Positions 1 through 11,947 of a stretch of 11,947 bases of DNA are shown piece after piece (the stretch's first letter is position 1; each line of letters begins with the position of its first letter). Source of the DNA: a virus; the UHGV virus genome UHGV-1581813. The stretch is one strand, 5' to 3'. The notes beneath the pieces were generated by a model. The model was not told where the DNA came from. It saw only the letters and a program-made list of their open reading frames with translations, and did no database searches. A program made the translations under genes and the position numbers.

Positions 1-347
1 GCCTGACGGATATCACCGCGATCAATCATCGGTAAAGCGCCACGCTCTTTAATCTGCTGCAATGCCACAGCGTCCTGGCTTTTGGGAGAGAAGTCTTTCA
101 GGCCAAGCTGCTTACGATAGGCATCCCACCAACGGGAAAGAAGCTGGTAACGTCCGGCTGCTGTTGATTTGAGTTTGGGGTTTAGCGTGACAAGTTTGCG
201 AGGGTGATCGGAGTAATCAGTGAATAGCTCTCCGCCAACAATGACGTCATAACCATGATTTCTGGTTTTCTGACGTCCGTTATCAGTTCCCTCCGACCAC
301 GCCAGCATATCGAGGAACGCCTTACGTTGATTATTGATTTCCACCAT
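1..347 (-). CDS. R: Endolysin R (lytic transglycosylase), 5' part only; gene runs off the window start
   Basis: Minus-strand translation from ATG at 347 gives [10 protein letters not shown]..., and the window edge reads ...[11 protein letters not shown]; both match lambda R as I recall it. The start overlaps the 3' end of S, as in lambda. Not in the ORF track because it is truncated. Confidence 0.85.
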
Positions 348-654
348 CTTCTACTCCGGCTTTTTTAGCAGCGAAGCGTTTGATAAGCGAACCAATCGAG
401 TCAGTACCGATGTAGCCGATGAACACGCTCGTTATATAAGCGAGATTGCTACTTAGTCCGGCGAAGTCGAGAAGGTCACGAATGAACCAGGCGATAATGG
501 CGCACATCGTTGCGTCGATTACTGTTTTTGTAAACGCACCGCCATTATATCTGCCGCGAAGGTACGCCATTGCAAACGCAAGGATTGCCCCGATGCCTTG
601 TTCCTTTGCCGCGAGAATGGCGGCTAACAGGTCATGTTTTTCTGGCATCTTCAT
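331..654 (-). CDS. S: Holin/antiholin S (class I holin, dual-start)
   Basis: 107-aa [35 protein letters not shown]..., which matches lambda S. It begins ATG-AAG-ATG, giving the S107/S105 dual starts, and is preceded by a CCCC..GGGGG stem covering the ribosome-binding site. Confidence 0.9.
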
Positions 655-946
655 GTCTTACCCCCAATAAGGGGATTTGCTCTATTTAATTAGGAATAAG
701 GTCGATTACTGATAGAACAAATCCAGGCTACTGTGTTTAGTAATCAGATTTGTTCGTGACCGATATGCACGGGCAAAACGGCATGAGGTTGTTAGCGCAA
801 CCTCTTGCCACCCGCTTTCACGAAGCCAGCCATTGAGCTGGTTTTCTTTTATGCAAAGCACACCGCACCGTAGCCACAGCGGATAAGGTGATTATTTTTG
901 TCTGTCTGGTATTTGGTTTGATGTGCTTTCAGAAAGGCCGTGCTTA

Positions 947-980
947 AAACGCAAAAAGCCCCGAGCTATTAACTCAGGGC
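947..980 (-). terminator. Intrinsic terminator downstream of pR' (tR'-like, end of a short 6S-like leader RNA)
   Basis: On the minus strand: GCCCTGAG-loop-CTCGGGGC, an 8-bp stem with one G-U pair, followed by TTTTTGCGTTTT. It lies about 60 nt downstream of the predicted pR' start. Confidence 0.6.
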
Positions 981-1016
981 TTTATTTAACGAGTGCATTT
1001 ATCCATCGTTGGGTCA

Positions 1017-1045
1017 AATTTACCCAACTTTATTCAAAAAGTCAA
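1017..1045 (-). promoter_or_regulatory. Late promoter pR' (with overlapping qut region expected)
   Basis: Minus strand has -35 TTGACT (1045..1040), a 17-bp spacer, and -10 TAAATT (1022..1017), directly downstream of the Q stop. The arrangement and sequence resemble lambda pR'. Confidence 0.6.
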
Positions 1046-1087
1046 TATCATGCCGTCAATATGTTGCCATCCGTGGCAATCATGCTG

Positions 1088-1711
1088 CTAACGTGTGACC
1101 GCATTCAAAATATTGTCTGCGATTGACTCTTCTTTGTGGCATTGCACCACCAGAGCGTCATACAGCGGCTTAACAGTGCGTGACCAGGTGGGTTGAGTAA
1201 GGTTTGGGATTAGCATCGTTACAGCGCGATATGCGGCGCTTGCTGGCATTCTTGAATAGCCGACACCTTTGCATCTTCCGCACTCTTTCTCAACAACTCT
1301 CCCCCACTGCTCTGTTTTGGCTATATCAACCGCACGGCCTGTACCGTGGCAATCTCTGCATCTTGCGCCCGGCGTCGCGGCACTACGGCAATAATCCGCA
1401 TAAGCGAATGTTGCGAGCACTTGCAGCACCTTTGCCTTAGTATTTCCTTCGAGCTTTGCCACACCACGGTATTTCCCCGATACCTTGTGTGCAAATTGCA
1501 TCAGATAGTTGATAGCCTTTTGTTTGTCGTTCTGGCTGAGTTCATGCTTACCGCAGAATGCAGCCATTCCGAATCCGGCCTGTGATTGTGCCATCCCCAT
1601 AGCAGCCATCACATCAGTACCGGAAAGAGAGTCAGAAGCCGTGGCCCGTGGTGAGTCGCTCATCATCGGGCTTTTTGGCGAATGAAATTTAGCTACGCTT
1701 TCGAGTCTCAT
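1088..1711 (-). CDS. Q: Late antiterminator Q
   Basis: 207-aa [30 protein letters not shown]... with the CxxC...CxxC zinc motif. It matches lambda Q in length and sequence as I recall, and sits directly upstream of pR'. Confidence 0.9.
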
Positions 1712-2319
1712 GCGGCCTCACTTCTGCTATTTCGCAGGTCTTTGAGTTTCTGCTGATACTCCGCCTTGATGGCCCTGCACTCTTCGACAGTCCAGCGATG
1801 GCGGTTATGGTTTGATTCGATTTCATCTACTGCTTCCTGCCCGATGCGGCTAATCAGTTCGACGCGATACGGAACGAGATTTCCGCTTTTGTGCTGGTTG
1901 CACACCACGCATTGCTTGTGAATATTGCGTTCATCAAATCGGAGTTGAGGCGCCGCAGCAGTTGTCCGGTAATGCCCGGCATCCCACTGAGCAGACGTGA
2001 GCGTTCCGCACGAGATACATGGTAAGTCGCGGTCTCTTTCTCTGATGAAGGCGTTTACGGCTTGTTGGGCTTGTTTAATCCAGTAACTGCGGGGCTTTAA
2101 GGCGAGTTTTCGAATCTTAAGTTTATCTTTCTGTTTCTGCTCCTCTCGTCGTAGTTTCTTCTCTGCTGCTTTTTCCGCTTTTTCGCGTTCTTTGCTTCGT
2201 CGTTCGAGTGCTATCTTGGTTCCACACTCTGGAGAGCACCACCACTGATTAGCGAATGCAGGGTGAAACCATTCCCGACAATCATCGTTTTTACATCGTC
2301 TTCGCGCTTGTTTAGCCAT
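1708..2319 (-). CDS. ninG: NinG / Rap recombination protein (Holliday-junction endonuclease family)
   Basis: 203-aa [36 protein letters not shown]..., matching lambda NinG. An ATGA overlap joins it to Q. Confidence 0.9.
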
Positions 2320-2588
2320 TATGGTTCGCTCCAGTAATTCTCAATTGCAGCAGCCATTCTCTGCATCCACTCAGCCAGCTTTAACGCGGCTTCTCTTTCA
2401 GAACCACATTTAGGGAAATCCTTCATTTCCATGCTGGCCTTATATGTTCTGAATGCCAGGTCTCCGGTAATAACCAGCTCCTGATCAAGCACCGAGCGTT
2501 TATTCCGGTGTTGAACGTAATAGACAGATTCAGTCCGCATTTCTTCTCTGTCTTTTTTGAAGGAAATAAGCTCAGAGAAATCACTCAT
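2319..2588 (-). CDS. Hypothetical 89-aa protein inserted between ninF and ninG
   Basis: [33 protein letters not shown].... Its ATG overlaps the ninF stop (ATGAGTGA) and its stop overlaps the ninG ATG (TAATG), so it is tightly coupled within the operon. I do not recognise the family. Confidence 0.6.
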
Positions 2589-2757
2589 CGTCTTCTTCCT
2601 CGTACATTGAGCTATTCGGATCGCTCATCAGTTCTGCGCAGCAGTGCTCACATACGTGAACTTCCAGAACATGCAGCTTCTGACCGCAGTTAGCGCACGT
2701 TAAAGCCAGCTCGACGCTTTCTTTCTGGTATTGAATGGATTGGGATGGGCTAAGCAT
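2581..2757 (-). CDS. ninF: NinF-like small zinc-binding protein (58 aa)
   Basis: Not in the ORF track (<60 aa). Translation is [58 protein letters not shown], matching lambda NinF as I recall. Its ATG overlaps the stop of the upstream NinX-like gene (TAATG). Confidence 0.75.
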   Translation of the reverse strand: MLSPSQSIQYQKESVELALTCANCGQKLHVLEVHVCEHCCAELMSDPNSSMYEEEDDE

Positions 2758-3122
2758 TATTGGATTCTCTGCATCATGAGAAAGACAATCATGGCGGCGC
2801 GGAGGGGATTTTCATGTATAGCTCGCTTAGATTTACAGTAGGCCACACCGCGTGCACCCCACTCGTCTTCATCGAGATTGATAATGCTAATCCTGTATTT
2901 TTCAATAATCGGCCATGCGTCTGCTGGGTTTGCGCATGGGTTAAAGGATCCGCGCTCAACTTCTACTTCAACTGCGTCTCCGTTTACAATGTCTCCCTCA
3001 AATGAGACAAACACCATATCGCCATTCTCACCTTCTTTGTAATCCGGTGATCCGTTATGAATGGCTTCGAATACCGCCACGTTAATCTCAAAATCACTTA
3101 ACTGTGAATAATCCATTGTCAT
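2757..3122 (-). CDS. NinX-like (DUF2591-type) nin-region protein
   Basis: The track ORF is 2757..3158. I place the start at the ATG at 3122 ([20 protein letters not shown]...) because it makes an ATGA overlap with the ninE stop; a second ATG at 3116 has a GAGGAA ribosome-binding site 6 nt upstream. Family assignment is from memory only. Confidence 0.55.
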
Positions 3123-3295
3123 TTCCTCGCACGATGTCTTAGCCACCGGATATCCCACAGGTGAGCCGTGTAGTTGAAGGTTTTTACGTCAGATTCTTTT
3201 GGGATTGGCTTGCGTTTATTTCTGGAGCGTTTCGTTGGAAGGTGTTTGCAGTTTTCACAGGTTATGTCGGTGATACTTCGTCGCTGTCTCGCCAT
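3119..3295 (-). CDS. ninE: NinE-like protein (58 aa)
   Basis: Not in the ORF track. Translation is [58 protein letters not shown], with a GGAGG ribosome-binding site 4 nt upstream. It matches the NinE family as I recall. Confidence 0.7.
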
Positions 3296-3435
3296 ACGTC
3301 CTCCTTTTCCTGCGGTAGTGGTAAAACTCCTGTTGGTGTTCTTTCACACCGGAGACACCATCGATTCCAGTAAGGTTGCCCGGGTCGAAAGCGATCGCCT
3401 TCCTTTCGCTCTCCACATCGATAACAGTGCTTCAT
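3262..3435 (-). CDS. Small zinc-ribbon protein (CxxC...CxxC), possibly NinD-like
   Basis: The ATG at 3435 makes an ATGA overlap with the methyltransferase stop. Product is [34 protein letters not shown].... Its 3' end overlaps the ninE start by 34 nt in another frame, which lowers confidence. Confidence 0.45.
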
Positions 3436-4022
3436 GCGATCACCATTTTGCATGGTTTAATCGCCATGCCGGTAGCCAGTTCAAAATCGGAGTCGCACTG
3501 ATTGCCCCACATATCCCACCCGGTCACTTTGTCGCGGCTAAATAACTCACAGCGCGGCACGTCGCCAAGCAACTTAGCTAACATGTCTCTTACGATCGGT
3601 GGTTTTGCACTGTGCTCCATTCTCGGTGCGGTAAAGTGCTGGCATATGGAAGCGTCCATTCTCTCAGGCAACCGCCCTCGAACAGCAAACAAGCAATCCT
3701 CGCTATTTGCCCGGGTCATATGCCCCATTCCGATCGCACTGTTGCCTTTGTGCTTATTGGTTTTGTGCCAAGTAAAGCCTTTCATAGTCATCAACCTGAA
3801 TCCCCACGCCTCAATTACCTTTAGCGCTTCGGCTGGCTGTGTCGGCACCCACCACATCGCTAACAAGCAAGATTCTGGATCCGCTAAATCCCATACTGGC
3901 AGTCGGCAAATGTCCTGAACATTCATAACATCGTATTTATGTCCAGCACCGCGATTGCCATCGTTGGCTTTGTCGCGATATTGCCAAGGCGGATCTGCGT
4001 AAATAAGTCGGTATTTGTTCAT
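3432..4022 (-). CDS. DNA N6-adenine methyltransferase (MT-A70 family), orphan
   Basis: 196-aa ORF with an N-terminal DPPW catalytic motif ([18 protein letters not shown]...). An ATGA overlap joins it to ninB. No restriction endonuclease partner is evident nearby. Confidence 0.85.
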
Positions 4023-4462
4023 GCAGCTTTATCTCCCCATCTCGCTTTCCACTCCAGAGCCAGTCGCGCTTCGTCTGACCACTTAACGCCACGTTCTGTA
4101 CCGAATGCCTGTATAAGCTCTAATAGCTCCGCAAATTCGCTTACACGCATCCTGCTGGTTGACTGGCCTATTACCACAAAGCCATTCCCGGCAAGGTTAG
4201 GAACAACATCCTGCTGCTTTAAGGCTGCGGTAAACACACACTTCCAGCTTTCTGCATCCAGCCAGCGACCATGCCATTCAACCTGACGAGAGACGTCACC
4301 AAGGCAAGCCCAAAGCTTCCGATTCTGGTCTAAGCTGCGGTTGCGTTCCTGAATGGTTACTACGATTGGTTTGGTTGGGTCTGGAAGGATTTGCTGGATA
4401 GCTTGAATGGCGTTCCGCTGATGGATGGGGCTTCTTAGTTCAAACGTTAGTTTCCTCACCAT
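4019..4462 (-). CDS. ninB: NinB (Orf-family recombination mediator)
   Basis: 147-aa ORF MVRKLTFELRSPIHQRNAIQAIQQILPDPTKPIVVTIQERNRSLDQNRKLWACLGDV..., matching lambda NinB. Confidence 0.9.
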   Translation of the reverse strand: MVRKLTFELRSPIHQRNAIQAIQQILPDPTKPIVVTIQERNRSLDQNRKLWACLGDVSRQVEWHGRWLDAESWKCVFTAALKQQDVVPNLAGNGFVVIGQSTSRMRVSEFAELLELIQAFGTERGVKWSDEARLALEWKARWGDKAA

Positions 4463-4604
4463 TTACGCTCCTGTAATCGTCAAGTGCAGCTGCAATAGTC
4501 CCTATCGGGTCATGGTCTTGCCCGATAATCTCATTTACGTTTTCATCTTCTTCCACACCGAAAAAGAATCGCAGGGCTAACATGATTTCTTCGTATGCGC
4601 TCAT
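4440..4604 (-). CDS. Unannotated small acidic protein (54 aa), hypothetical
   Basis: Not in the ORF track. AAGGAG lies 5 nt upstream of the ATG at 4604. Product is MSAYEEIMLALRFFFGVEEDENVNEIIGQDHDPIGTIAAALDDYRSVNGEETNV. Its stop overlaps the ninB start and it begins 3 nt after the upstream gene's stop. Confidence 0.4.
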   Translation of the reverse strand: MSAYEEIMLALRFFFGVEEDENVNEIIGQDHDPIGTIAAALDDYRSVNGEETNV

Positions 4605-4606
4605 AC

Positions 4607-4879
4607 TCACTCCTTCACTTTGACTCCAGCAGCGCGGATGTTTTCCTCATAAGCATCCATTCCATCACCGAAGCCATTGGAATAATCAACAGTAAACCCT
4701 TTGGCTAATGCTTCTCTGCTGTCGATAAACTTTGGCGCGGTTATTTCAATAGCTGCTCGCGATGCCTGCCACGCCTCCCATGCAATCTCGACCTTGATGT
4801 GCATAATCTTCATCACGTCACTTGAAACGTGATATTTGTTTTTAAACCACTCTTCAAACTGCTTTCTTGATTCGTCCAT
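4607..4879 (-). CDS. Hypothetical protein (90 aa)
   Basis: ORF MDESRKQFEEWFKNKYHVSSDVMKIMHIK..., co-oriented and tightly packed in the early-right operon. No motif recognised. Confidence 0.55.
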   Translation of the reverse strand: MDESRKQFEEWFKNKYHVSSDVMKIMHIKVEIAWEAWQASRAAIEITAPKFIDSREALAKGFTVDYSNGFGDGMDAYEENIRAAGVKVKE

Positions 4880-4890
4880 ATCAATCCCCG

Positions 4891-5091
4891 TTATGACAGG
4901 TTAATTTTCACCCAACCCTTCCCACGCACATTTGCAACAAGCCCTTTCTTTCTCAGGTATTGCATACGGCGATCGATGGTTTCGATATACATTCCATTGC
5001 TCCGCCATTTAAGCCAGATATCAAAAATAGGTGTTGGTCTTTCACTCAGCATTGAAAGAATGTTTTGATCTAATTTTTCGTACTTGCTCAC
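4891..5091 (-). CDS. Small putative winged-helix protein (66 aa), occupies a Ren-like position
   Basis: ORF MSKYEKLDQNILSMLSERPTPIFDIWLKWRSNGMYIETIDRRMQYLRKKGLVANVRGKGWVKINLS. An ATGA overlap joins it to the upstream membrane-protein gene. The winged-helix call is inferred from the sequence pattern only. Confidence 0.5.
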   Translation of the reverse strand: MSKYEKLDQNILSMLSERPTPIFDIWLKWRSNGMYIETIDRRMQYLRKKGLVANVRGKGWVKINLS

Positions 5092-5414
5092 AAATACCCT
5101 CTCTCACTTAATCGCCTCCACGCTTCGTTAAACTCTTCTCGGGTTGCGCCGGATTTTCTTTCTTCAAACATCATGCATTCGCTGATGTCTCCCCATGACT
5201 TTGGTCGCTTTTCAGCGAACAGATCATCCCATTCGAATACCCAGCGGCCTGATTTTCGGTAGTGGTAAATGGTCAGCCATGTTGTGCTGTTCGCTGGATA
5301 CCCATAGAGAACTTCGACTTTTTGATCACGGTCTTTATGCTTTTTCAGCAGGATAAAGCCAGCAACCAGCGAAGCTCCGGCAAGAATGATGATTGGAATT
5401 TGCCAGTCAGCCAC
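5088..5414 (-). CDS. Small membrane protein (one N-terminal transmembrane helix), hypothetical
   Basis: GTG start at 5414 preceded by a GGGGGAGAGGGAAG purine-rich ribosome-binding site. The N-terminus IPIIILAGASLVAGFILL is hydrophobic and followed by KKHKDRDQK (positive-inside). Confidence 0.5.
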   Translation of the reverse strand: MADWQIPIIILAGASLVAGFILLKKHKDRDQKVEVLYGYPANSTTWLTIYHYRKSGRWVFEWDDLFAEKRPKSWGDISECMMFEERKSGATREEFNEAWRRLSERGYL

Positions 5415-5428
5415 ACTTCCCTCTCCCC

Positions 5429-5461
5429 CAAATAAAAAGGCCTGCGATTACCAGCAGGCCT
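5429..5461 (-). terminator. Intrinsic terminator between replication genes and the nin-side cluster (tR2-like)
   Basis: Minus strand: AGGCCTGC-(8-nt loop)-GCAGGCCT, a perfect 8-bp stem, followed by TTTTTATTT, directly after the helicase stop. Confidence 0.6.
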
Positions 5462-5490
5462 GTTATTAGCTCAGTGATGTAGATGGTCAT

Positions 5491-7371
5491 TTAATACTCC
5501 GTCACGTTTTCCTGTCGCCACGCCTCGTCATATTCCGATTTCGGCATATTGGCGATGTAGCTATATGGCGATCCTGATTCAAGTTGCAGGAACTGGTGCG
5601 ATTGCTCGTCAAGGAACAACGGGACACCACCCTCCCAACCTTCGCCGTTACGTTGTTTTTCAAGCATCAAAACAGATGCCGGAGATGCCAGTAGCTGTTC
5701 GTCCTTCTCTGACATCTTTTCACCACTCTGAACTCTCTGTAACGCTCTCTCGCGAGCCTTGTTACGCCAGATGATGAAAAGGTTGTCTGTCAGGTCTGTT
5801 ATCGCTCCAGAGCCTTTTACGTCCATTTTCCCGGTTGGTTTTTCTTCGCTGTCTCCTTTTCGCGAGTGAGTAACGAGAATGACGTGGGAGTTTGTTTTGT
5901 TTTTGAAGTCGCAAATCGAGTCAACAAACGCCTTCTGCCCGTTATAGTCATCGTCGCCTATGCCACATTTCATCAGGCTGTCGATGATGAATAACTGGAT
6001 ACCGTATCGGCGGCGAGCGTAGTCGAATATTTCGATCAGCCTGTCGGCTTTCGCCGTTCCGGTCAGGCCAAACACCCAAAGTCTTTCGTCATAAAATTTA
6101 AATGCAGAGTCAATTTCCAGCACTGGCGGCATCTTGCAGCACGTTGCCTGACGGGTAAGTCGCTTAAGGAGAATGCCTGGCTTCAGCTCAAGTGACGCGA
6201 TGCACGTCTTCACACCCTGACGCATTGCCTCAAGTGCCATATGCCCGACAACCTCCGTTTTTCCGTGACCGTTCACACCATTGACCAGCGTCAACTCTGC
6301 CTCACGGAACTGGAATTTATCTGCCAGAGATTCCCACGGTGGATTAAACAGATACTGCTGCTTGCCGTAGAAAGCGTTGATAGTGTCCTGGTAAAACTCT
6401 CGCGCACTGTAGAGTTCTTCAGGATCGAAGTAGGATGCCGTGCCGATGTACTGCCAGATTTCATCCTCGGTAACACCGTTCATCAGGCATTCGTTGATGT
6501 CTTTGTACGGCAGAGTAACAAGACGGCAACGATGTTCACCGAGTCGGCTTGCGATTTCCCTTGCGGCTTCACGACCAACATCATCAACGTCCATCGAGAT
6601 GAATATCTCCTCAAACCTGTCGAGGTTGTGATACTCAAACTCAATCCACTGTTGCTTAGCACCTTTCCCGCCACCAAACGGCACGGATAACGCCGAGATG
6701 CCGTATTGCGCATAGCTCATACAATCAATTTCGCCTTCGCAAAGCACAACCGCCCTCACGCCAGCGTCCAGAGCCTGCCATCCGAACAGACAAGGTTCGC
6801 AATCACCTTCTGCCATAATGACTTTCTTCCCGTCCGGGCGCTCAGTGCTGATTCGCTTGACCTGCAACAACTCACCATCGCGTTTGTACGGAAGCACCAG
6901 AGCATCCAGTTCTCGTTCTCCATTCCACACCTTGCCGCTGACAACCTCGTAGCGCTTTACGACTTCTGGCGATATGCCACGCGATTGCAGGTACTCAAGA
7001 TGGGATTCTGTTCTGGTAACGTAGCGGGCGATTTTCTTGCGATCAGGTCTGGAGAATTTCTTCTCACGTTTGGCATCGAAATGGTGATCGTCATCCTTGA
7101 TACCGAGAAATGCTTTCGCTTCCTGCATAGCCTGATGCAGGTTAATTCCTCGACATGCCATCCACAAATCAAGCATGTCACCGCCGTCTCCCTCAGCGAA
7201 ATCAGCCCATTTTTTCTTGCCGCTAAGGTTGACCTTAAGGCTGTTTCCCTTGTCACCGTTGACGTTACCGGCAACCCACTCATGCCCCTCTTTCTTGCCG
7301 TTCGGCAACAGGTGCGGAGCCACCCTGTCAACCTGCGCCCAAAGCAGGTCGCTAAGTTCACTTGGCGTCAT
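5491..7371 (-). CDS. Replicative primase-helicase (Toprim-like domain plus DnaB/RepA-type P-loop helicase)
   Basis: 626-aa ORF with a Toprim-like VLCEGEIDCMS motif, Walker A GVNGHGKT and Walker B LFIIDSLM. It lies immediately downstream of the O-like initiator, in place of lambda P. Confidence 0.8.
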   Translation of the reverse strand: MTPSELSDLLWAQVDRVAPHLLPNGKKEGHEWVAGNVNGDKGNSLKVNLSGKKKWADFAEGDGGDMLDLWMACRGINLHQAMQEAKAFLGIKDDDHHFDAKREKKFSRPDRKKIARYVTRTESHLEYLQSRGISPEVVKRYEVVSGKVWNGERELDALVLPYKRDGELLQVKRISTERPDGKKVIMAEGDCEPCLFGWQALDAGVRAVVLCEGEIDCMSYAQYGISALSVPFGGGKGAKQQWIEFEYHNLDRFEEIFISMDVDDVGREAAREIASRLGEHRCRLVTLPYKDINECLMNGVTEDEIWQYIGTASYFDPEELYSAREFYQDTINAFYGKQQYLFNPPWESLADKFQFREAELTLVNGVNGHGKTEVVGHMALEAMRQGVKTCIASLELKPGILLKRLTRQATCCKMPPVLEIDSAFKFYDERLWVFGLTGTAKADRLIEIFDYARRRYGIQLFIIDSLMKCGIGDDDYNGQKAFVDSICDFKNKTNSHVILVTHSRKGDSEEKPTGKMDVKGSGAITDLTDNLFIIWRNKARERALQRVQSGEKMSEKDEQLLASPASVLMLEKQRNGEGWEGGVPLFLDEQSHQFLQLESGSPYSYIANMPKSEYDEAWRQENVTEY

Positions 7372-7478
7372 GATTCCCTCAGATTGAGATTTTTAAACCA
7401 GAAATCGACAAACGAAATACTTAACCAGCCGTGGTTATAACCAGCGACCAGTAGCGATTTGATTTTTGATTTCATGGT

Positions 7479-8339
7479 TCACCTGTCGAAAAACACGTAG
7501 CCAGTTTTCGATACGGTGATTGCGGATGATGGTTTAGATTGTGGTTGAATGGTTTCTGGCTTTTCGTCGTTCCAGCGCTGACCGTTCAGGTAGCTCGATG
7601 GTAACAACCTGTCGAATCCGAACTGCTTACCATTCCTGCATGCGATGTCTTCTGCCAGCATCGTGGCAAACTCGCTTGCCGTACCCTTGGTAGTTTTACG
7701 CCATTCCCTGAACTGTGTTCTGAATGCCGTAGCTGCGTTTTTCTTCCCGGCTTTCCGCATGCCTGCACACCAGAATATTTCCTCGAATGCCTTGTCGGTT
7801 TCTTCGTGACGGTCAGGTGATTTTTCACACTCCGTCCGAACACTTTCGGACATAGTGTTTTTATTATTTCTTTTTTCTTTTGTAATAGTTTCTTTTGTGT
7901 GTCCCTGTTTTGGTGACAGCGCTGTCACCGTTTTGGTGACACTTTTTGTCACCAATGCAGTGACATTATCACCAGAGTAGTGACACCCTTCGATTTTCCA
8001 TTCTTCGATGTTCTTGTTAGGCCCGATTTGCTGGCCTTCGCGAAGGATAACCTTCATCGCGATAAGCTCATTCTTGGCCTTGTTTACCTTCTGTCTTGGC
8101 AGCCTGGTAATTTGAGCTAACTGACTATCAGAGATGCGATCCATCTTTTTACCGTAGCCGTATGTTTTACGGCATATGGCGTGGGCAACCTTGCTCTGAT
8201 TTTTCGTTAAATCTGCGCCGATAAGCTCTTCATACAGGGCATTTGCAAGACGGGTATAACCATCTTCAACTTCTGCCACACGACGCTCCACAGGCCGTTG
8301 TGAAGGCCTTAAATGTGTTACGGTTGCAAGATTAATCAT
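7479..8339 (-). CDS. Replication initiator, lambda O-like N-terminal domain
   Basis: 286-aa ORF. Its N-terminal ~110 aa (…[14 protein letters not shown]…ADLTK…[25 protein letters not shown]…GPNKNIEEW) are clearly homologous to lambda O as I recall. The gene contains the iteron array, as O contains ori-lambda. Confidence 0.85.
7858..7990. repeat. Candidate origin of replication inside the O-like gene: four GTGACA-containing iterons plus an adjacent AT-rich tract
   Basis: GTGACA occurs at 7913, 7936, 7960 and 7980 (20-24 bp spacing), each within an inverted-repeat unit such as GGTGACAGCGCTGTCACC. An AT-rich block lies at 7858-7900. The order iterons-then-AT-rich in the direction of O transcription matches ori-lambda architecture. 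Confidence 0.6.
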
Positions 8340-8478
8340 GACCTTTCTCCTTCTGCATCAGCTTCACTTTTTCCAACTCAGCCCGGAATCGACCAGGCTG
8401 CTTGAAGCTGGACAGGAAGCGATCACGTAGTATGTGTTTGTGAATTTTGTCCTGGTAAGGACTGAGTTGTTTTGTCAT
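8332..8478 (-). CDS. Unannotated small basic protein (48 aa) between cII and the O-like gene
   Basis: Not in the ORF track. ACAGGAGTAATT precedes the ATG at 8478. Product is [48 protein letters not shown]. Its stop overlaps the O-like start. The start context resembles the lambda O start context as I recall. Confidence 0.45.
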
Positions 8479-8487
8479 AATTACTCC

Positions 8488-8566
8488 TGTGGATTGATCC
8501 AGTAATGACCTCAGAATTCCATCTGGATTTGTTCAGAACGCTCGGTTGCCGCCGGGCGTTTTTTAT
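8488..8566 (+). ncRNA. oop: OOP-like antisense RNA (pO promoter to the 'to' terminator), antisense to the cII 3' end
   Basis: Plus strand has an extended -10 TGTCATAAT at 8473-8481. Downstream is a hairpin GCTCGG-UUGCCG-CCGGGC (8540-8557) followed by GTTTTTTATT. The resulting ~78-nt transcript overlaps the last ~55 nt of cII on the opposite strand, as in lambda. Confidence 0.55.
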
Positions 8567-8804
8567 TGGTGAGAATCGAAGCAACTTGTCGTGCCAATCG
8601 AGCCATGTCGTCGTCAACGACACCCCATTCAAGAACAGCAAGCAGCATTGAGAACTTTGGAATCCAATCCCTCTTCCACCTGCTGATCTGCGACTTATCA
8701 ACTCCCACAGCTTCCGCTGTCTTCTCAGTTCCAAGCATTGCGATTTTGTTAAGCAACGCACTCTCGATTCTTAGAGCCTCGTTGCGTTTGTTTGCACGAA
8801 CCAT
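8511..8804 (-). CDS. cII: Transcriptional activator CII
   Basis: From the ATG at 8804 the product is [51 protein letters not shown]..., 97 aa, matching lambda CII. The classic TAAGGAAATACTTACAT-ATG start context is present. The track ORF (start 8891) is an upstream in-frame extension across nutR. Confidence 0.9.
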
Positions 8805-8862
8805 ATGTAAGTATTTCCTTAACAAATAAGAAGTTATGCGCATCAACTTATGCGCGTTGTAT

Positions 8863-8905
8863 TCCCGCATTTCGGCGGGAATGAGGACCATGACTGTTAA
8901 AGAGC
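8863..8905 (-). promoter_or_regulatory. nutR (boxA plus boxB hairpin)
   Basis: On the minus strand, just after the cro stop: boxA-like TGCTCTTTAACA, then 14 nt, then hairpin TCCCGC-CGAAAU-GCGGGA. The same boxA and an identical hairpin recur downstream of pL on the plus strand. Confidence 0.6.
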
Positions 8906-8912
8906 AATTTGC

Positions 8913-9098
8913 TTATGCCGCTTTGCGGTAAGCGCTTTCTTGATACTTCAGGGCGCCAGCTGTAACGACTTCCAGTCGATAGGCGTCTTTCTCTGGGATG
9001 ACTTCCTTCCACTGAGAGACTGCTGCGTCGCTAATGCCTAACGCTTTAGCTACAGCACGCTGGGTTCCGAAGTGGTCGATAACATCTTTCTTGTACAT
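8913..9098 (-). CDS. cro: Cro repressor (P22-type)
   Basis: 61-aa ORF MYKKDVIDHFGTQRAVAKALGISDAAVSQWKEVIPEKDAYRLEVVTAGALKYQ... with a helix-turn-helix, divergent from the repressor gene. It resembles P22 Cro as I recall. Confidence 0.85.
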   Translation of the reverse strand: MYKKDVIDHFGTQRAVAKALGISDAAVSQWKEVIPEKDAYRLEVVTAGALKYQESAYRKAA

Positions 9099-9112
9099 AG
9101 ACTCGCTCCGAA

Positions 9113-9178
9113 ATTAAAGAACACTTAAATTATCCACTAAAGGAATCTTAAGTCAAGTTTATTTAAGATGTCTTAACT
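9113..9178. promoter_or_regulatory. Right operator region (three 18-bp operators, OR1-OR3) with divergent pR and pRM
   Basis: Three imperfectly palindromic 18-mers: ATTAAAGAACACTTAAAT (9113-9130), ACTAAAGGAATCTTAAGT (9136-9153) and ATTTAAGATGTCTTAACT (9161-9178), with centres 23 and 25 bp apart. The last ends 1 nt before the repressor ATG, consistent with a leaderless pRM transcript. Confidence 0.65.
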
Positions 9179-9829
9179 ATGAAAACTCAATTGATGGGAG
9201 AGCGCATTCGCGCTCGGAGAAAAGAACTCAAGATCAGGCAGGCCGCACTTGGAAAGATGGTCGGCGTGTCTAATGTTGCCATATCTCAGTGGGAACGCTC
9301 TGAGACAGAGCCAAATGGAGAGAATCTTCTCGCCCTGGCTAATGCGTTGAAGTGTTCCCCTGACTATCTGATGAAAGGAGAGGAAAGTCTTTCAAACATT
9401 GCCTATCACAGTAGGCATGATCCAAGAGGGTCATACCCTCTGATTAGCTGGGTGAGCGCAGGATGCTGGATGGAAGCTGTAGAACCATATCATAAGCGTG
9501 CAATAGATAACTGGTACGATACAACCGTAGACTGTTCAGAAGATTCGTTTTGGTTGGACGTGAAGGGAGACTCAATGACGGCTCCGGCCGGTCTCAGTAT
9601 CCCTGAAGGAATGATAATACTCGTCGATCCTGAAGTAGAGCCGCGTAACGGGAAACTGGTAGTTGCAAAGCTCGAAGGAGAAAACGAGGCAACTTTCAAG
9701 AAGTTAGTTATTGATGCAGGCAGGAAGTTTCTAAAACCACTTAACCCACAATATCCGATGATCGAGATCAACGGGAACTGCAAAATCATCGGCGTAGTTG
9801 TCGATGCAAAACTAGCAAACCTTCCATAA
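9179..9829 (+). CDS. c2: Prophage repressor, P22 c2-type (HTH plus LexA-like S24 autopeptidase domain)
   Basis: 216-aa ORF MKTQLMGERIRARRKELKIRQAALGKMVGVSNVAISQWERSETEPNGENLLALANAL... with a C-terminal S24-type domain (…WLDVKGDSM…). It closely resembles the P22 C2 repressor as I recall. Confidence 0.9.
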   Translation: MKTQLMGERIRARRKELKIRQAALGKMVGVSNVAISQWERSETEPNGENLLALANALKCSPDYLMKGEESLSNIAYHSRHDPRGSYPLISWVSAGCWMEAVEPYHKRAIDNWYDTTVDCSEDSFWLDVKGDSMTAPAGLSIPEGMIILVDPEVEPRNGKLVVAKLEGENEATFKKLVIDAGRKFLKPLNPQYPMIEINGNCKIIGVVVDAKLANLP

Positions 9830-9830
9830 G

Positions 9831-9855
9831 GGGGCATTCGCCCCTTTTTTTATTT
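9831..9855 (+). terminator. Intrinsic terminator after the repressor gene
   Basis: GGGGC-ATTC-GCCCC hairpin followed by TTTTTTTATTT, starting 2 nt after the repressor stop. Confidence 0.6.
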
Positions 9856-9890
9856 CCTTTAAAAATCAAAGCCAAACTTAAGTTACGAAA

Positions 9891-9948
9891 GAAAATTTAA
9901 GTTTTCTTCAAAAATACTCTTGACCATTAATTAAAGAGATCTTAAATT
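9891..9948 (+). promoter_or_regulatory. pL promoter with overlapping left operator(s)
   Basis: -35 TTGACC (9920-9925), 17-bp spacer, -10 TAAATT (9943-9948). Operator-like ATTAAAGAGATCTTAAAT (9930-9947) overlaps the spacer and -10, and a second palindromic site GAAAATTTAAGTTTTC lies at 9891-9906. Confidence 0.55.
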
Positions 9949-9993
9949 TAAGCCATCAGCAGGACGCTGGTAGCCAAACGGAACAGATTGGCA

Positions 9994-10035
9994 GGCTCTT
10001 TAACATTGATGGAATTGTCCCGCCGAAATGCGGGA
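9994..10035 (+). promoter_or_regulatory. nutL (boxA plus boxB hairpin)
   Basis: boxA-like GGCTCTTTAACA (9994-10005), then 12 nt, then hairpin TCCCGC-CGAAAU-GCGGGA (10018-10035), identical to the hairpin at nutR. Confidence 0.6.
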
Positions 10036-10177
10036 ACCAAAGAGTAGTTGGCTTTGGGATTGGATGAATGCGCAGGCTGATGCGCGCAGGAGAGCTTCGG
10101 GAGAACAAGGTGCCTGTAAATAAGCCGGAGTTCAGCACCGGCCATCCAATCGCCAAAGTCAATCATCGGAGGTCAAC

Positions 10178-10483
10178 ATGGCAGTAGTCATTACATATCT
10201 GGCTGACGATAACGCCAGAAATCGCCGCAGAGCACGCAGACAGGCTCAACGTGAACAGGCAATGCAAGAGCAGCGACTGGCGCGAAAAATTGCGCTAAAG
10301 CTCTCTGGTTGCGTCAGAGCAGATAAAGCAGCATCACTCGGAAGCCTTCGCTGCAAGAAGGCAGAAGAAGTCGAGCGTAAACAGAACCGTATTTACTACC
10401 GCAAGCCACGCAGTGAAATGGGTGTGACTTGCTCAGGCCGCCAGAAACAACGCGGAAAATCAATTCCAGCTTATTACGATTGA
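10178..10483 (+). CDS. N: N-like transcription antiterminator (arginine-rich motif at N-terminus)
   Basis: 101-aa ORF with GGAGG 5 nt upstream. The N-terminus carries an arginine-rich motif (DDNARNRRRARRQAQREQ). The C-terminus (…RIYYRKPRSEMGVTCSGRQKQRGKSIP…) resembles the lambda N C-terminus as I recall, but the N-terminal motif differs from lambda. Confidence 0.8.
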   Translation: MAVVITYLADDNARNRRRARRQAQREQAMQEQRLARKIALKLSGCVRADKAASLGSLRCKKAEEVERKQNRIYYRKPRSEMGVTCSGRQKQRGKSIPAYYD

Positions 10484-10491
10484 GGTGAGCC

Positions 10492-10629
10492 ATGCTCAAG
10501 AAAGTCAAACGCCGACTTTACAAAGAAGGTAGATATTCATGCCATTTGCCAAAATGCGACACAGCAAAATGGAGTGTCGATGATTGGTGTAACTGGATAG
10601 ATAGATACGGAACTTGGTGGGATAAATAA
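10492..10629 (+). CDS. Unannotated small Cys/His/Trp-rich protein (45 aa), hypothetical
   Basis: Not in the ORF track. The ATG at 10492 lies 8 nt after the N stop and is preceded by TGAGGTGAG. Product is MLKKVKRRLYKEGRYSCHLPKCDTAKWSVDDWCNWIDRYGTWWDK. Confidence 0.45.
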   Translation: MLKKVKRRLYKEGRYSCHLPKCDTAKWSVDDWCNWIDRYGTWWDK

Positions 10630-10683
10630 CAGGTAACTTAAGCGGATTTATTTTCGCAGCAAACCACTTATTTGAGGTGAGAT

Positions 10684-10947
10684 ATGGACGAGAAAATTAA
10701 ATCATTGAAGCCAGGAATTGTTATCAGAGACATAAGTGGTTATTACGATACAGAGACATATGATATTTTATATGTGCATGCAGATGGAAAATGTCAGTAT
10801 TCGAACGACATTTTTAATAATAAAGGCGATGCCGAAATTGCTGCCACCACAGTTAATAAAGAGCTCGTAGCTAACGAGTCGTGGGATTATTTTATGCCAT
10901 CATCCACTTCTATGAACTGGAAAGTGGTTTTGTACATTCCATCATAA
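10684..10947 (+). CDS. Hypothetical protein (87 aa), AT-rich accessory gene downstream of N
   Basis: ORF MDEKIKSLKPGIVIRDISGYYDTETYDILYVHADGKCQYSNDIFNNKGD..., preceded by the same TGAGGTGAG ribosome-binding motif as the 45-aa ORF. AT-rich codon usage; an intrinsic terminator follows. Confidence 0.55.
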   Translation: MDEKIKSLKPGIVIRDISGYYDTETYDILYVHADGKCQYSNDIFNNKGDAEIAATTVNKELVANESWDYFMPSSTSMNWKVVLYIPS

Positions 10948-10988
10948 TTGTAGCTGCCGTTCAAAAATGAAAGTAAATCTAACATCAC

Positions 10989-11012
10989 AGGCCGCATAGT
11001 CGGCCTTCTTTT
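10989..11012 (+). terminator. Intrinsic terminator after the 87-aa ORF
   Basis: AGGCCG-CATAGT-CGGCCT hairpin followed by TCTTTTGG. Confidence 0.5.
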
Positions 11013-11131
11013 GGCATAAACAACAGAATAAACACTGCACTGTGTATTCATTCCAACGAGTGAATACACTGAGCAATGTCGCTCGTAACTAAACAGGAGC
11101 CGACTTGTTCTGATTATTGGAAATCTTCTTT

Positions 11132-11157
11132 GCCCTCCAGTGTGAGGGCGATTTTTT
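11132..11157 (+). terminator. Intrinsic terminator upstream of ea10
   Basis: GCCCTC-CAGTGT-GAGGGC hairpin followed by GATTTTTTAT, 20 nt before the ea10 start. Confidence 0.55.
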
Positions 11158-11177
11158 ATCTATGAGGATATGAATAG

Positions 11178-11546
11178 ATGTCAAACATCAAAAAATACAT
11201 CATTGATTACGACTGGAAAGCATCAATGGAAATTGAAATCGACCATGACGTAATGACAGAGGAAAAACTTCACCAGATTAATAATTTCTGGTCAGACTCT
11301 GAATACCGACTCAATAAACACGGCTCTGTATTAAATGCTGTATTAATCATGCTGGCGCAACATGTTCTGCTTATAGCAATTTCAAGCGACTTAAATGCAT
11401 ATGGTGTTGTGTGTGAGTTCGACTGGAATGATGGAAATGGTCAGGAAGGATGGCCTCCAATGGATGGTAGTGAAGGAATAAGAATTACCGATATCGATAC
11501 ATCAGGAATATTTGATTCAGATGATATGACTATCAAGGCCGCCTGA
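11178..11546 (+). CDS. ea10: Ea10-like protein (122 aa; function in lambda poorly defined)
   Basis: ORF MSNIKKYIIDYDWKASMEIEIDHDVMTEEKL... with an acidic C-terminus. Its length, its position immediately upstream of cIII, and its spacing to cIII match lambda ea10 as I recall. Confidence 0.65.
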   Translation: MSNIKKYIIDYDWKASMEIEIDHDVMTEEKLHQINNFWSDSEYRLNKHGSVLNAVLIMLAQHVLLIAISSDLNAYGVVCEFDWNDGNGQEGWPPMDGSEGIRITDIDTSGIFDSDDMTIKAA

Positions 11547-11618
11547 GCGCGGCGTTACCGCATACCAATTACGCTTCACTCGAGGCGTTTTTCGTTATGT
11601 ATAAATAAGGAGCACACC

Positions 11619-11783
11619 ATGCAATATGCCATTGCAGGGTGGCCTGTTGCTGGCTGCCCTTCCGAATCTTTACTTGAACGAATCACCCGTAAATTACGTG
11701 ACGGATGGAAACGCCTTATCGACATACTTAATCAGCCAGGAGTCCCAAAAAATGGATCAAACAATTATGGCTATCCAGACTAA
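11619..11783 (+). CDS. cIII: CIII (inhibitor of FtsH-mediated CII degradation)
   Basis: Not in the ORF track (54 aa). AGGAG lies 6 nt upstream of the ATG at 11619. Product is [54 protein letters not shown], matching lambda CIII as I recall. Confidence 0.75.
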   Translation: MQYAIAGWPVAGCPSESLLERITRKLRDGWKRLIDILNQPGVPKNGSNNYGYPD

Positions 11784-11895
11784 ATTCACTATCGCCACTT
11801 TTATTGGCGATGAAAAGATGTTTCGTGAGGCCGTCGACGCTTATAAAAAATGGATATTAATACTGAAACTGAGATCAAGCAAAAGCATTCACTAA
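11752..11895 (+). CDS. kil: Kil (FtsZ-inhibiting host-killing protein)
   Basis: From the ATG at 11752 (AGGAG 9 nt upstream) the product is [47 protein letters not shown], 47 aa. It overlaps the 3' end of cIII by 32 nt, as the lambda kil/cIII pair does. The track ORF 11626..11895 is an upstream in-frame extension. Confidence 0.7.
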
Positions 11896-11947
11896 CCCCC
11901 TTTCCTGTTTTCCTAATCAGCCTGGCATTTCGCGGGCGATATTTTCA

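Follow-up and report, generated by a model that had tools for sequence, protein, structure and literature searches.

The window analysed here (the whole stretch of 11,947 nt from the viral genome UHGV-1581813) comes from a lambdoid E. coli prophage of the Sf101/mEp043-like type and covers its segment from immunity to lysis. On its minus strand, ninB, an MT-A70 methyltransferase gene, ninD and ninE follow one another in this order, as summarized in Table 1. An earlier note, made from the sequence alone, had described an orphan methyltransferase between ninB and ninE, coupled to a small zinc-ribbon open reading frame (ORF). The ORFs, the DPPW motif, the ATGA and the 34-nt overlaps that it listed were all found in place on the minus strand. 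The methyltransferase gene is not directly next to ninE, as ninD intervenes.

Table 1. Features of the window (positions are those of the whole stretch)
Feature	Position	Strand	Evidence or remark
ninE, 58 aa	3119-3295	-	Pfam NinE PF05322, E 5.6e-43; overlaps ninD by 34 nt at 3262-3295
ninD, 57 aa	3262-3435	-	Pfam NinD PF17466, E 9.5e-39; phrog_8091
ATGA junction methyltransferase/ninD	3432-3435	-	TGA stop 3432-3434 overlaps ATG 3433-3435
N6-adenine methyltransferase of the MT-A70 family (beta class), reduced to the catalytic core; 196 aa	3432-4022	-	PF05063, E 4.7e-25
DPPW catalytic motif IV, residues 10-13	3984-3995	-	codons GAT CCG CCT TGG, read from the sequence
ATGA junction ninB/methyltransferase	4019-4022	-	ninB TGA stop overlaps methyltransferase ATG
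ninB (Orf recombination mediator), 147 aa	4019-4462	-	Pfam NinB PF05772, E 3.9e-54; 94% identical to lambda NinB
Strong intrinsic-terminator-like hairpin	5438-5461	-	8-bp stem, 6 GC pairs, then T-run
cro	8913-9098	-	Pfam
pR-like promoter	9129-9156	-	10/12 consensus match; between cI and cro; likely origin of the nin transcript
cI	9179-9829	+	Pfam
N-like ORF with Arg-rich motif	10178-10483		Pfam N_peptide only below threshold (E 0.002)

Pfam also assigned cII and O in the window, and four unassigned ORFs of at most 108 aa each lie between the primase-helicase gene and ninB. The hairpin at 5438-5461 separates the primase-helicase and other replication genes from the nin genes, which is the position of tR2 in lambda; its position suggests a role as a terminator, and such a terminator implies that the methyltransferase would be expressed only with antitermination. 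The location in the early rightward operon, as proposed in the earlier note, was thus borne out by the pR-like promoter and the terminator-like hairpin upstream on the minus strand and by the N-like ORF. Because these three elements are present, N-dependent, lytic-phase expression of the methyltransferase can fairly be inferred. In this operon stretch, 11 of 12 gene junctions overlap, and ATGA junctions are typical of lambdoid nin regions (PMC8022706). The ATGA overlaps in nin regions are a sign that the operon as a whole is compactly packed and translationally coupled, and do not point to partnerships between particular proteins.

The identification of the 196-aa product as an MT-A70 adenine methyltransferase was supported by the PF05063 match (88.9 bits against a cutoff of 23.9), in which residues 4-175 cover model positions 1-172 of 172, and by an intact DPPW. 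The protein also matches phrog_359 (E 3e-106) and the PADLOC model MTase_II for type II methyltransferases (E 4e-70), and NCBIfam gave no match for either the methyltransferase or NinD. DPPW occupies residues 10-13, and this N-terminal location corresponds to the circularly permuted order of motifs. Among 32 homologues, D10, P11 and W13 never vary, and P12 is conserved in at least 90%. An AlphaFold model (pLDDT 76, pTM 0.79) was best matched by Foldseek to the METTL3 catalytic core (E 6e-14, TM 0.69), with MTA1 at TM 0.66, and the core contains no recognizable target-recognition domain. The dN/dS values of 0.03-0.08 against relatives indicate strong purifying selection. Neither the adjacent genes nor the window ORFs searched with Pfam nor the nine nin-region proteins searched with PADLOC include a cognate endonuclease of a type II restriction-modification system, in line with the earlier description of the enzyme as an orphan. 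The methyltransferase is a member of a family of orphan 'Dam-like' methylases that is very common in temperate phages of enterobacteria.

The small CxxC...CxxC ORF is, by sequence homology, NinD, a conserved lambdoid nin gene product known in lambda as "Nin 57". The ORF list and RefSeq alike give a 63-aa version starting from an ATG at 3453; the PF17466 match (131.7 bits against a cutoff of 35) places model positions 1-57 of 57 on residues 7-63 of this ORF. Because the Pfam alignment begins at residue 7, the start conserved in the family is judged to be the ATGA one at 3435, not that at 3453. The cysteines of NinD at positions 4, 7, 27 and 30 form a CxxC(19)CxxC N-terminal half of zinc-binding type, which is followed by an acidic tail that is probably disordered; in the structure model, pLDDT is about 80-85 over residues 1-30 and falls below 50 in the tail. 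All four cysteines are invariant across the 15 protein variants that were taken from loci of phages and prophages; in an eight-sequence database alignment, C4, C7 and C27 are invariant, and position 30 is Arg in a single cluster representative (P0129). A Foldseek search of the PDB with the NinD model returned nothing better than E 1.0, with only generic zinc modules at this non-significant level. The small ORF is 89% identical to lambda-type NinD alleles and shows a dN/dS of 0.12 against lambda, and its polymorphic sites are distributed over the three codon positions as 6/6/19. Given the low dN/dS of both genes, this codon-position pattern and the invariant cysteines, the methyltransferase gene and the small ORF are, as judged from the sequences, real coding genes and not chance ORFs. 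Homologue searches with NinD recovered only 12 clusters, all at least 75% identical, and no distant relatives. The names of these clusters refer to Enterobacteriaceae, except for one labeled Streptococcus pneumoniae. In the literature, we found nothing usable on ninD translation by ribosome profiling, and a CRISPRi screen of lambda left ninD out (PMC10695390).

We compared the neighbors of the two genes, using 80 loci of the methyltransferase and 80 of NinD. Upstream of NinD, 28 of its 80 loci have NinB, 26 the MT-A70 methyltransferase and 26 NinC, whereas NinD begins at an ATGA in all 80, whatever gene lies upstream, and is directly followed by NinE in all 80. In lambda, ninD (41950-42123) likewise follows ninC with an ATGA and overlaps ninE (42090-42272) by an identical 34 nt. 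Methyltransferase copies at 91-92% identity (L032-L034) have NinE directly downstream and lack NinD, and NinD is likewise missing beside most of the more distant methyltransferase relatives. In two further loci (L020 and L030), a methyltransferase 96-98% identical to the one studied here is combined with a NinD allele of only 77% identity, and the divergence begins at the ATGA or just after it. The zinc-ribbon ORF was therefore not upheld as a coupled partner of the methyltransferase, the role that the earlier note had suggested for it: it is NinD, which follows NinB or NinC in 54 of the 80 loci. An apparent natural fusion of the methyltransferase with NinD in L020 was also rejected, since the TGA-to-TGG change adds 34 codons in another frame and the two are not joined in-frame.

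When the locus was aligned with lambda, homology extended up to the ninB stop and resumed at the ATGA of ninD. This alignment shows that the methyltransferase exactly replaced ninC, ORF for ORF, by an exchange of modules at ATGA gene junctions. Among 80 close NinB loci, the slot after ninB is occupied by a Dam-type methylase of PF05869 in 33 and by an MT-A70 gene in 14, and 32 have no methylase downstream. The PF05869 and MT-A70 genes therein look like interchangeable cassettes. M.EcoVT2Dam of phage VT2-Sa, which is listed as GATC-specific (PMC6602927), is identical to gp34 of 933W. No MT-A70 gene was found near the 933W int; the nin-region methylase of 933W belongs to PF05869.

The earlier note had regarded the target motif as not determinable from sequence, which was overstated, as homology yields GATC as a prediction. 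The methyltransferase is 44% identical to p32 of Serratia phage BZS1, which methylates GATC as judged by MboI and DpnI digests (PMC7556043), and 64% identical over 187 residues to the presumed phiPA8 enzyme sequence, which was retrieved with the mutagenesis primer of PMC10810198 and whose identity is assumed. The phiPA8 enzyme was described as highly similar to M.EcoGV (PMC10810198), and M.EcoGV was reported to methylate GATC in vivo (PMC10810198, PMC6602927). Because of this homology to BZS1 p32 and phiPA8/M.EcoGV and the presence of PF05869 Dam in the same slot, a GATC target is predicted, by extrapolation from enzymes that share 44-64% identity with this one. When purified, the phiPA8 enzyme alone showed almost no activity on DNA or GATC and, together with a winged helix-turn-helix (wHTH) partner encoded upstream, preferred 16S rRNA, and the authors argued that the GATC methylation seen when M.EcoGV is overexpressed may be an off-target activity (PMC10810198). 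The window contains 33 GATC sites against about 61 expected, a depletion that does not separate the hypotheses on the target. Moreover, as the closest solved relatives (METTL3-METTL14 and the MTA1 complex) all act as heteromers, a bare 196-aa core of this kind may need a partner.

Considering these results, we suggest that the methyltransferase is most likely a lytic-phase, N-dependent, Dam-like DNA m6A enzyme with GATC as its predicted target. To the explanation as a whole, in which a module in the ninC slot, followed by an ordinary NinD, is expressed lytically under N and places m6A on GATC of the phage DNA, we assign a probability of roughly 0.58. The operon layout suggests that the gene would be silent in the lysogen. 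Upon induction or infection, the pR transcript would pass the hairpin at 5461-5438 by N-type antitermination and the methyltransferase would be made, its translation presumably being coupled to that of ninB. Homologues and the equivalence of the slot suggest that the enzyme, probably a homodimer like other beta-class enzymes, would then methylate GATC of the fast-replicating phage DNA in a SAM-dependent manner. This extra methylation would supplement limiting host Dam, and, once fully methylated, the DNA would be shielded from methyl-sensitive restriction directed at GATC and from nicking by MutH. Self-protection against restriction, the role put forward in the earlier note, would be plausible, although the closest studied relative was reported to act on 16S rRNA instead (PMC10810198). 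E. coli already has Dam, and that a further GATC methylase would be of benefit is argued here rather than observed.

A different substrate is suggested by phiPA8, whose holoenzyme, formed with M.EcoPA8orf6770P, prefers 16S rRNA and raises spontaneous induction (PMC10810198). By this analogy, the methyltransferase would be a 16S rRNA m6A enzyme that tunes prophage induction instead of a DNA methylase, and both its identity with the presumed phiPA8 sequence and its fold, which is nearest to the core of the RNA methylase METTL3, are consistent with such a function. However, rRNA targeting in phiPA8 needs PNB-2, which is encoded directly upstream, whereas the upstream gene here is NinB, and tblastn searches of the window for homologues of PNB-2, PerC or wHTH proteins gave only E values above 0.1. 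The C-terminal tail that PMC10810198 links to PNB-2 binding also differs: the protein is 12 residues shorter (196 aa against 208 aa), and beyond residue 187 of its 196 it no longer aligns with the presumed phiPA8 sequence; short variants without PNB-2 are described in PMC10810198. Furthermore, the gene lies in an operon predicted to be lytic and N-dependent and not under a stationary-phase promoter, and even in the case of phiPA8 it was never established which rRNA base is modified. We therefore consider rRNA methylation unlikely for this enzyme. As a candidate partner, a 66-aa ORF at 4891-5091 with a faint HTH match (E 0.067) was rejected, as it accompanies the methyltransferase in at most 3 of 80 loci (2 of 31 near-identical copies).

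It is also improbable that the enzyme is a DNA adenine methylase of relaxed or no specificity, like M.EcoGII or p24 of the Serratia prophage OS31, that protects DNA broadly. A catalytic core without an obvious target-recognition domain might be expected of such an enzyme, phage-borne non-specific adenine methylases do exist (PMC7544214, PMC7556043), and broad protection would suit an orphan enzyme made early in lytic growth. However, PMC7544214 treats M.EcoGII as beta-class, apart from the MT-A70 group, and those MT-A70 relatives for which tests exist gave GATC: with BZS1 p32, sensitivity to other enzymes that m6A would block persisted (PMC7556043), and the specificity listed for M.EcoGV is GATC (PMC6602927).

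The position after ninB raises the question of whether the two genes are functionally connected. In 47 of the 80 methyltransferase loci, the methyltransferase comes directly after a NinB-family gene from one of three divergent lineages, usually with a stop/start overlap, and the PF05869 Dam methylases likewise lie right after ninB. We regard it as very unlikely that this recurrent coupling of a small adenine methylase to NinB/Orf reflects a functional link rather than synteny. If it did, one such link would be that fast, full GATC methylation blinds MutH-dependent mismatch repair, so that Orf/Red recombination can run to completion between lambdoid genomes that have diverged. In another, NinB would serve the bare MT-A70 core as a subunit that binds nucleic acid, acting on single-stranded DNA. 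Still less probable is the specific proposal that the methyltransferase works with the upstream-encoded NinB/Orf, a single-stranded-DNA-binding recombination mediator, in the way in which the phiPA8 enzyme works with its upstream partner. The NinB of this phage is nearly the same protein as lambda Orf, which is functional without an adjoining methylase; close NinB loci often have no methylase downstream, as counted above, other genes lie upstream in 33 of 80 methyltransferase loci, and the adjacency is explained by the conserved order of the nin genes (PMC4118853).

Finally, a translationally coupled two-subunit enzyme in which the zinc-ribbon NinD provides nucleic-acid recognition is barely credible: the ATGA at the junction, the frequent requirement of MT-A70 enzymes for a nucleic-acid-binding partner (PMC10810198) and the presence of NinD downstream of 31 of 31 methyltransferase copies at 96% identity or more would agree with it, but the last is explained by recent common descent, and the neighbor statistics and diverged alleles described above speak against NinD as the partner, since the same ATGA follows NinB or NinC, lambda has NinD without a methylase in its nin region, methyltransferase relatives at 92% identity or less mostly lack NinD, one methyltransferase type pairs with diverged NinD alleles, and NinD is tied to NinE.

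The preferred reading, that of a Dam-like enzyme in the ninC slot, concerns genes that are already on record. RefSeq annotates the same four-gene arrangement, the 1381-bp ninE-ninB stretch is matched over at least 80% in 39 out of 5,426 complete genomes of E. coli, and the 90%-identity protein cluster of the methyltransferase holds 228 member sequences. The gene, its family, NinD and the gene order are already known, so that what was observed is genuine but not unusual; lambdoid phages commonly carry an orphan adenine methylase directly behind ninB. The substrates reported for the closest relatives conflict, being 16S rRNA with a partner (PMC10810198) and GATC in DNA on overexpression (PMC6602927, PMC10810198). 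The methyltransferase is thus a natural test case of whether small phage MT-A70 enzymes act on GATC in DNA or, via a partner, on rRNA. This copy has no wHTH partner, and its place in a lytic operon is one that a PF05869 Dam-type methylase fills in other phages; its substrate would tell whether, without a partner, such an enzyme is an analogue of Dam acting on DNA.

Among known systems, the lambda nin region shares the order ninB-ninC-ninD-ninE and the ATGA and 34-nt overlaps, as well as the high identities of ninB and ninD, and differs in carrying a PAPS-reductase-like ninC where this phage has a methylase. The M.EcoVT2Dam/933W gp34 type (PF05869 'Dam', phage HP1/T1-like Dam), the commonest occupant of the slot, lies in the same place after ninB, and gp34 is an orphan of 175 aa with a 4-nt overlap with ninB. 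However, this type belongs to a Pfam family other than PF05063, and neither protein matched the model of the other; the resemblance is one of functional analogy, not of membership. M.EcoPA8orf6770P of phiPA8 and M.EcoGV of an O104:H4 prophage, both from lambdoid Stx phages, share the Pfam family, the DPPW start and the core-only architecture and are likewise orphan, prophage-borne and translationally coupled to an upstream gene, whereas their genes are located near the integrase end after PNB-2 and not in the nin region after NinB. BZS1 p32 is also an MT-A70 orphan methylase of a temperate enterobacterial phage, and its identity extends across the whole core; it is encoded next to integrase/excisionase genes instead of in the nin region and has an insertion of about 24 residues, and at 44% identity the transfer of its specificity is not certain. 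METTL3-METTL14 and the ciliate MTA1 complex have the same fold and the same DPPW active site, although they are only about 21-25% identical and work solely as heteromers, in which additional subunits or domains bind RNA or DNA.

The DNA alignment to lambda was near-identical through ninB as far as its stop, the lambda ninC stretch and the methyltransferase stretch were unrelated, and homology resumed at the ninD ATGA. On this alignment, the methyltransferase replaces ninC ORF for ORF. The lambda record (ninB 40644-41084, ninC 41081-41953, ninD 41950-42123 and ninE 42090-42272) shows both overlaps of the window, 4 nt where ninD starts and 34 nt between ninD and ninE, and the window NinB is 94% identical to lambda Orf. 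The methyltransferase, its DPPW motif, the ATGA junction, the small ORF and its 34-nt overlap with ninE were all found on the minus strand where the earlier note had placed them.

Coordinates and strands of the features discussed
Feature	Position	Strand	Remarks
89-aa ORF	2319-2588	-	between ninF and ninG; 8-nt overlap with ninF, 1-nt overlap with ninG
ninE	3119-3295	-	contains the last 34 nt of the small ORF
small ORF (ninD)	ATG at 3435, end at 3262	-	57 aa; Cys at 4, 7, 27 and 30
methyltransferase	3432-4022	-	196 aa; N-terminus [17 protein letters not shown]...; DPPW at residues 10-13; TGA stop overlaps the ninD ATG at 3435 (ATGA)
ninB	4019-4462	-	overlaps the methyltransferase start via a second ATGA
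four small ORFs (108, 66, 90 and 56 aa)	4440-5414	-	between the terminator and ninB; lambda ren position
strong terminator hairpin	5461-5438	-	divides replication genes from nin genes; lambda tR2 position
626-aa Toprim and DnaB-like primase-helicase	5491-7371	-	in place of lambda P
O-like initiator	7479-8339	-	upstream of the primase-helicase
pR-like promoter	9156-9129	-
N-like ORF	10178-10483	+	Arg-rich motif; Pfam match sub-threshold only

The methyltransferase covers the whole Pfam MT-A70 model (E 4.7e-25), matches PHROG 359 ("DNA methyltransferase") and the PADLOC type II methyltransferase model (E 4e-70), and consists of an intact MT-A70 catalytic core with no further domain. Its predicted fold (pLDDT 76) superimposes on the catalytic domains of METTL3 and MTA1 (TM 0.66-0.69), solved structures that are also matched at the sequence level. 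We obtained dN/dS values of 0.03-0.08 against relatives at 92-96% identity, and for the small ORF 0.12 against lambda, with 6/6/19 polymorphic sites by codon position and invariant cysteines; hence neither is a chance ORF.

On balance we favor a Dam-like enzyme that methylates the replicating phage DNA, a reading to which we assign a probability of about 0.55-0.6. The methyltransferase is 44% identical to BZS1 p32, the MT-A70 methylase of a Serratia phage, which in a dam-negative strain conferred MboI resistance and DpnI sensitivity (PMC7556043), and Dam-type methylases of PF05869 are interchangeable with it by position; both points argue for GATC. It is also 64% identical to the presumed sequence of the phiPA8 enzyme, which has been termed highly similar to M.EcoGV (PMC10810198), an enzyme listed as GATC-specific (PMC6602927). 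However, Gong et al. saw almost no activity of the purified phiPA8 enzyme on DNA, whereas it acted on 16S rRNA once bound to PNB-2, the wHTH protein whose gene lies directly upstream; they also cautioned that the GATC methylation obtained with overexpressed M.EcoGV may be an off-target effect (PMC10810198). An rRNA methylase is nevertheless unlikely here: the upstream position of PNB-2 is taken by NinB, no PNB-2, PerC or wHTH homologue was detectable in the window, the C-terminal tail is unlike that of the phiPA8 enzyme, and shorter variants occur without PNB-2 (PMC10810198). The absence of PNB-2, the different tail and these short variants favor a DNA target, and DNA methylation of relaxed specificity is an improbable form of it. 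A homodimer would be the simplest working form, since beta-class methylases are generally homo- or heterodimers (PMC7544214). GATC is scarce in the window (33 sites over 1-11947, where a trinucleotide Markov model predicts approximately 61 and base composition 46), a depletion that does not separate these readings, and one site (3992-3995) lies within the DPPW codons.

The small ORF is NinD: Pfam PF17466 matches it with E 9.5e-39, model positions 1-57 aligning with residues 7-63 of the longest ORF. As this alignment begins at residue 7, the conserved ninD start is the one at the ATGA, which is also favored by lambda and by loci with NinB or NinC before NinD. RefSeq (PGAP) annotates a 63-aa NinD from an ATG at 3453, within the methyltransferase coding sequence, a longer start possible only with the present methyltransferase upstream; both start codons fall in 3433-3453. 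NinD has a narrow distribution: among 5.8 billion proteins it forms no more than 12 clusters, none of them below 75% identity. Its predicted structure has moderate confidence only over the Cys-bearing N-terminal 30 residues, and no significant structural match to this model was found.

We counted neighbors in 80 IMG/VR loci with methyltransferase relatives and 80 with NinD. The gene before NinD was NinB in 28 loci and the methyltransferase or NinC in 26 each; the ATGA junction and a following NinE were seen in all 80. Among the methyltransferase loci, NinD was present only beside near-identical copies (at least 96%, 31 loci) and one 92% copy; three copies at 91-92% (L032-L034) were followed directly by NinE, and most of the more distant copies had neither gene. 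In two loci (L020 and L030), a methyltransferase 96-98% identical adjoins a NinD allele of only 77%, diverging from the ATGA or just past it. In the prophage L020 (3543-3775, against 3250-3480 of the window), the junction reads ATGG (TGA to TGG) with the ninD ATG kept, and the methyltransferase ORF is extended by 34 codons over the ninD start in a different frame. From the 108-aa ORF to Q, 11 of 12 junctions in the window overlap, six by a 4-nt NTGA. Published work describes junctions of the ATGA kind as usual in the nin regions of lambdoid phages (PMC8022706) and the synteny of ninD, ninE and ninF as conserved (PMC4118853). Given the neighbor statistics and the overlaps throughout the operon, the methyltransferase/ninD overlap reflects operon-wide packing and translational coupling rather than specific pairing. 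The neighbor statistics speak against NinD as a partner, and NinD and NinB taken together are very improbable in that role; the earlier reading of an orphan MT-A70 methylase in an N-dependent operon stands, without the zinc-ribbon ORF as its coupled partner.

The minus-strand order is holin, Q, ninG, the 89-aa ORF, ninF, ninX, ninE, ninD, methyltransferase, ninB, four small ORFs, primase/helicase, O, cII and cro, with cI and the N-like ORF on the plus strand; the replication module is of the Sf101/P22-like kind. From the pR-like promoter, terminator and N-like ORF, lytic-phase, antitermination-dependent expression of the methyltransferase can reasonably be inferred. The scans of window ORFs yielded no restriction endonuclease. 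The 89-aa ORF is probably a further nin-region gene, given its overlaps with both neighbors; neither it nor the four small ORFs matched Pfam or PADLOC. A faint HTH match (E 0.067) was seen for the 66-aa ORF, and the 108-aa ORF opens with a hydrophobic segment that probably spans the membrane.

The arrangement ninB, "MT-A70 family methyltransferase", "protein NinD", NinE is already in RefSeq, so that the feature is known and annotated. Among phages, Sf101 and mEp043 match the window best. Of the complete E. coli genomes, 39 out of 5,426 match 80% or more of the 1381 bp from ninE to ninB; the 90%-identity cluster of the methyltransferase protein has 228 member sequences, and the family exceeds 1,000 clusters across Enterobacterales. 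Two public records appear to be lambda contamination, from a vector or spike-in: 'Campylobacter phage CJLB-4' (MW057783.1, 48.4 kb), which carries lambda nin genes and aligns to the query just as lambda itself does, and, in the NinD protein cluster P0127, the NCBI entry 'protein ninD [Streptococcus pneumoniae]'.

The slot following ninB is a known variable position. In the 80 closest IMG/VR NinB loci (L178-L257, NinB at least 94% identical), the next gene was PF05869 "Dam" (33), NinE (15), MT-A70 (14), NinD (12) or NinC (5), so that an adenine methylase of one of two Pfam families lies directly 3' of ninB in 47; in L255, a PF05869 gene lies approximately 0.5 kb past ninB. Phages 933W and Sf101 carry the PF05869 type in this slot, and M.EcoVT2Dam, the identical enzyme from phage VT2-Sa, has GATC as its listed specificity (PMC6602927). 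The MT-A70 type is found behind NinB/Orf genes of three divergent lineages: PF05772, DUF1367 and a weak group resembling NinB. A methylase after ninB may reflect a recombination hot spot only, or may hint at a tie between Orf-mediated recombination and adenine methylation.

A passage of PMC8022706 cites earlier work in which lambda and P22 virion DNA was under-methylated by host Dam. A phage GATC methylase made early in lytic growth could complete this methylation. It would thereby shield the DNA from methyl-sensitive GATC-directed restriction, where a host has such a system, and keep MutH from nicking phage DNA that is hemimethylated; the self-protection proposed in the earlier note would be compatible with such a role. 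If the partner-less nin-region form methylates GATC in DNA, this would bear on the disagreement over phage MT-A70 enzymes. In the phiPA8-type Stx prophage L090 (2219-3273), the presumed 208-aa methyltransferase and PNB-2 (longest ORF 143 aa, with a weak HTH_11 match) also overlap by 4 nt, and in phiV10 and Tyrion, both uetakeviruses, a PerC or wHTH gene runs 8-11 nt into the start of the methyltransferase. The methyltransferase is thus typically coupled in translation to whatever gene precedes it.
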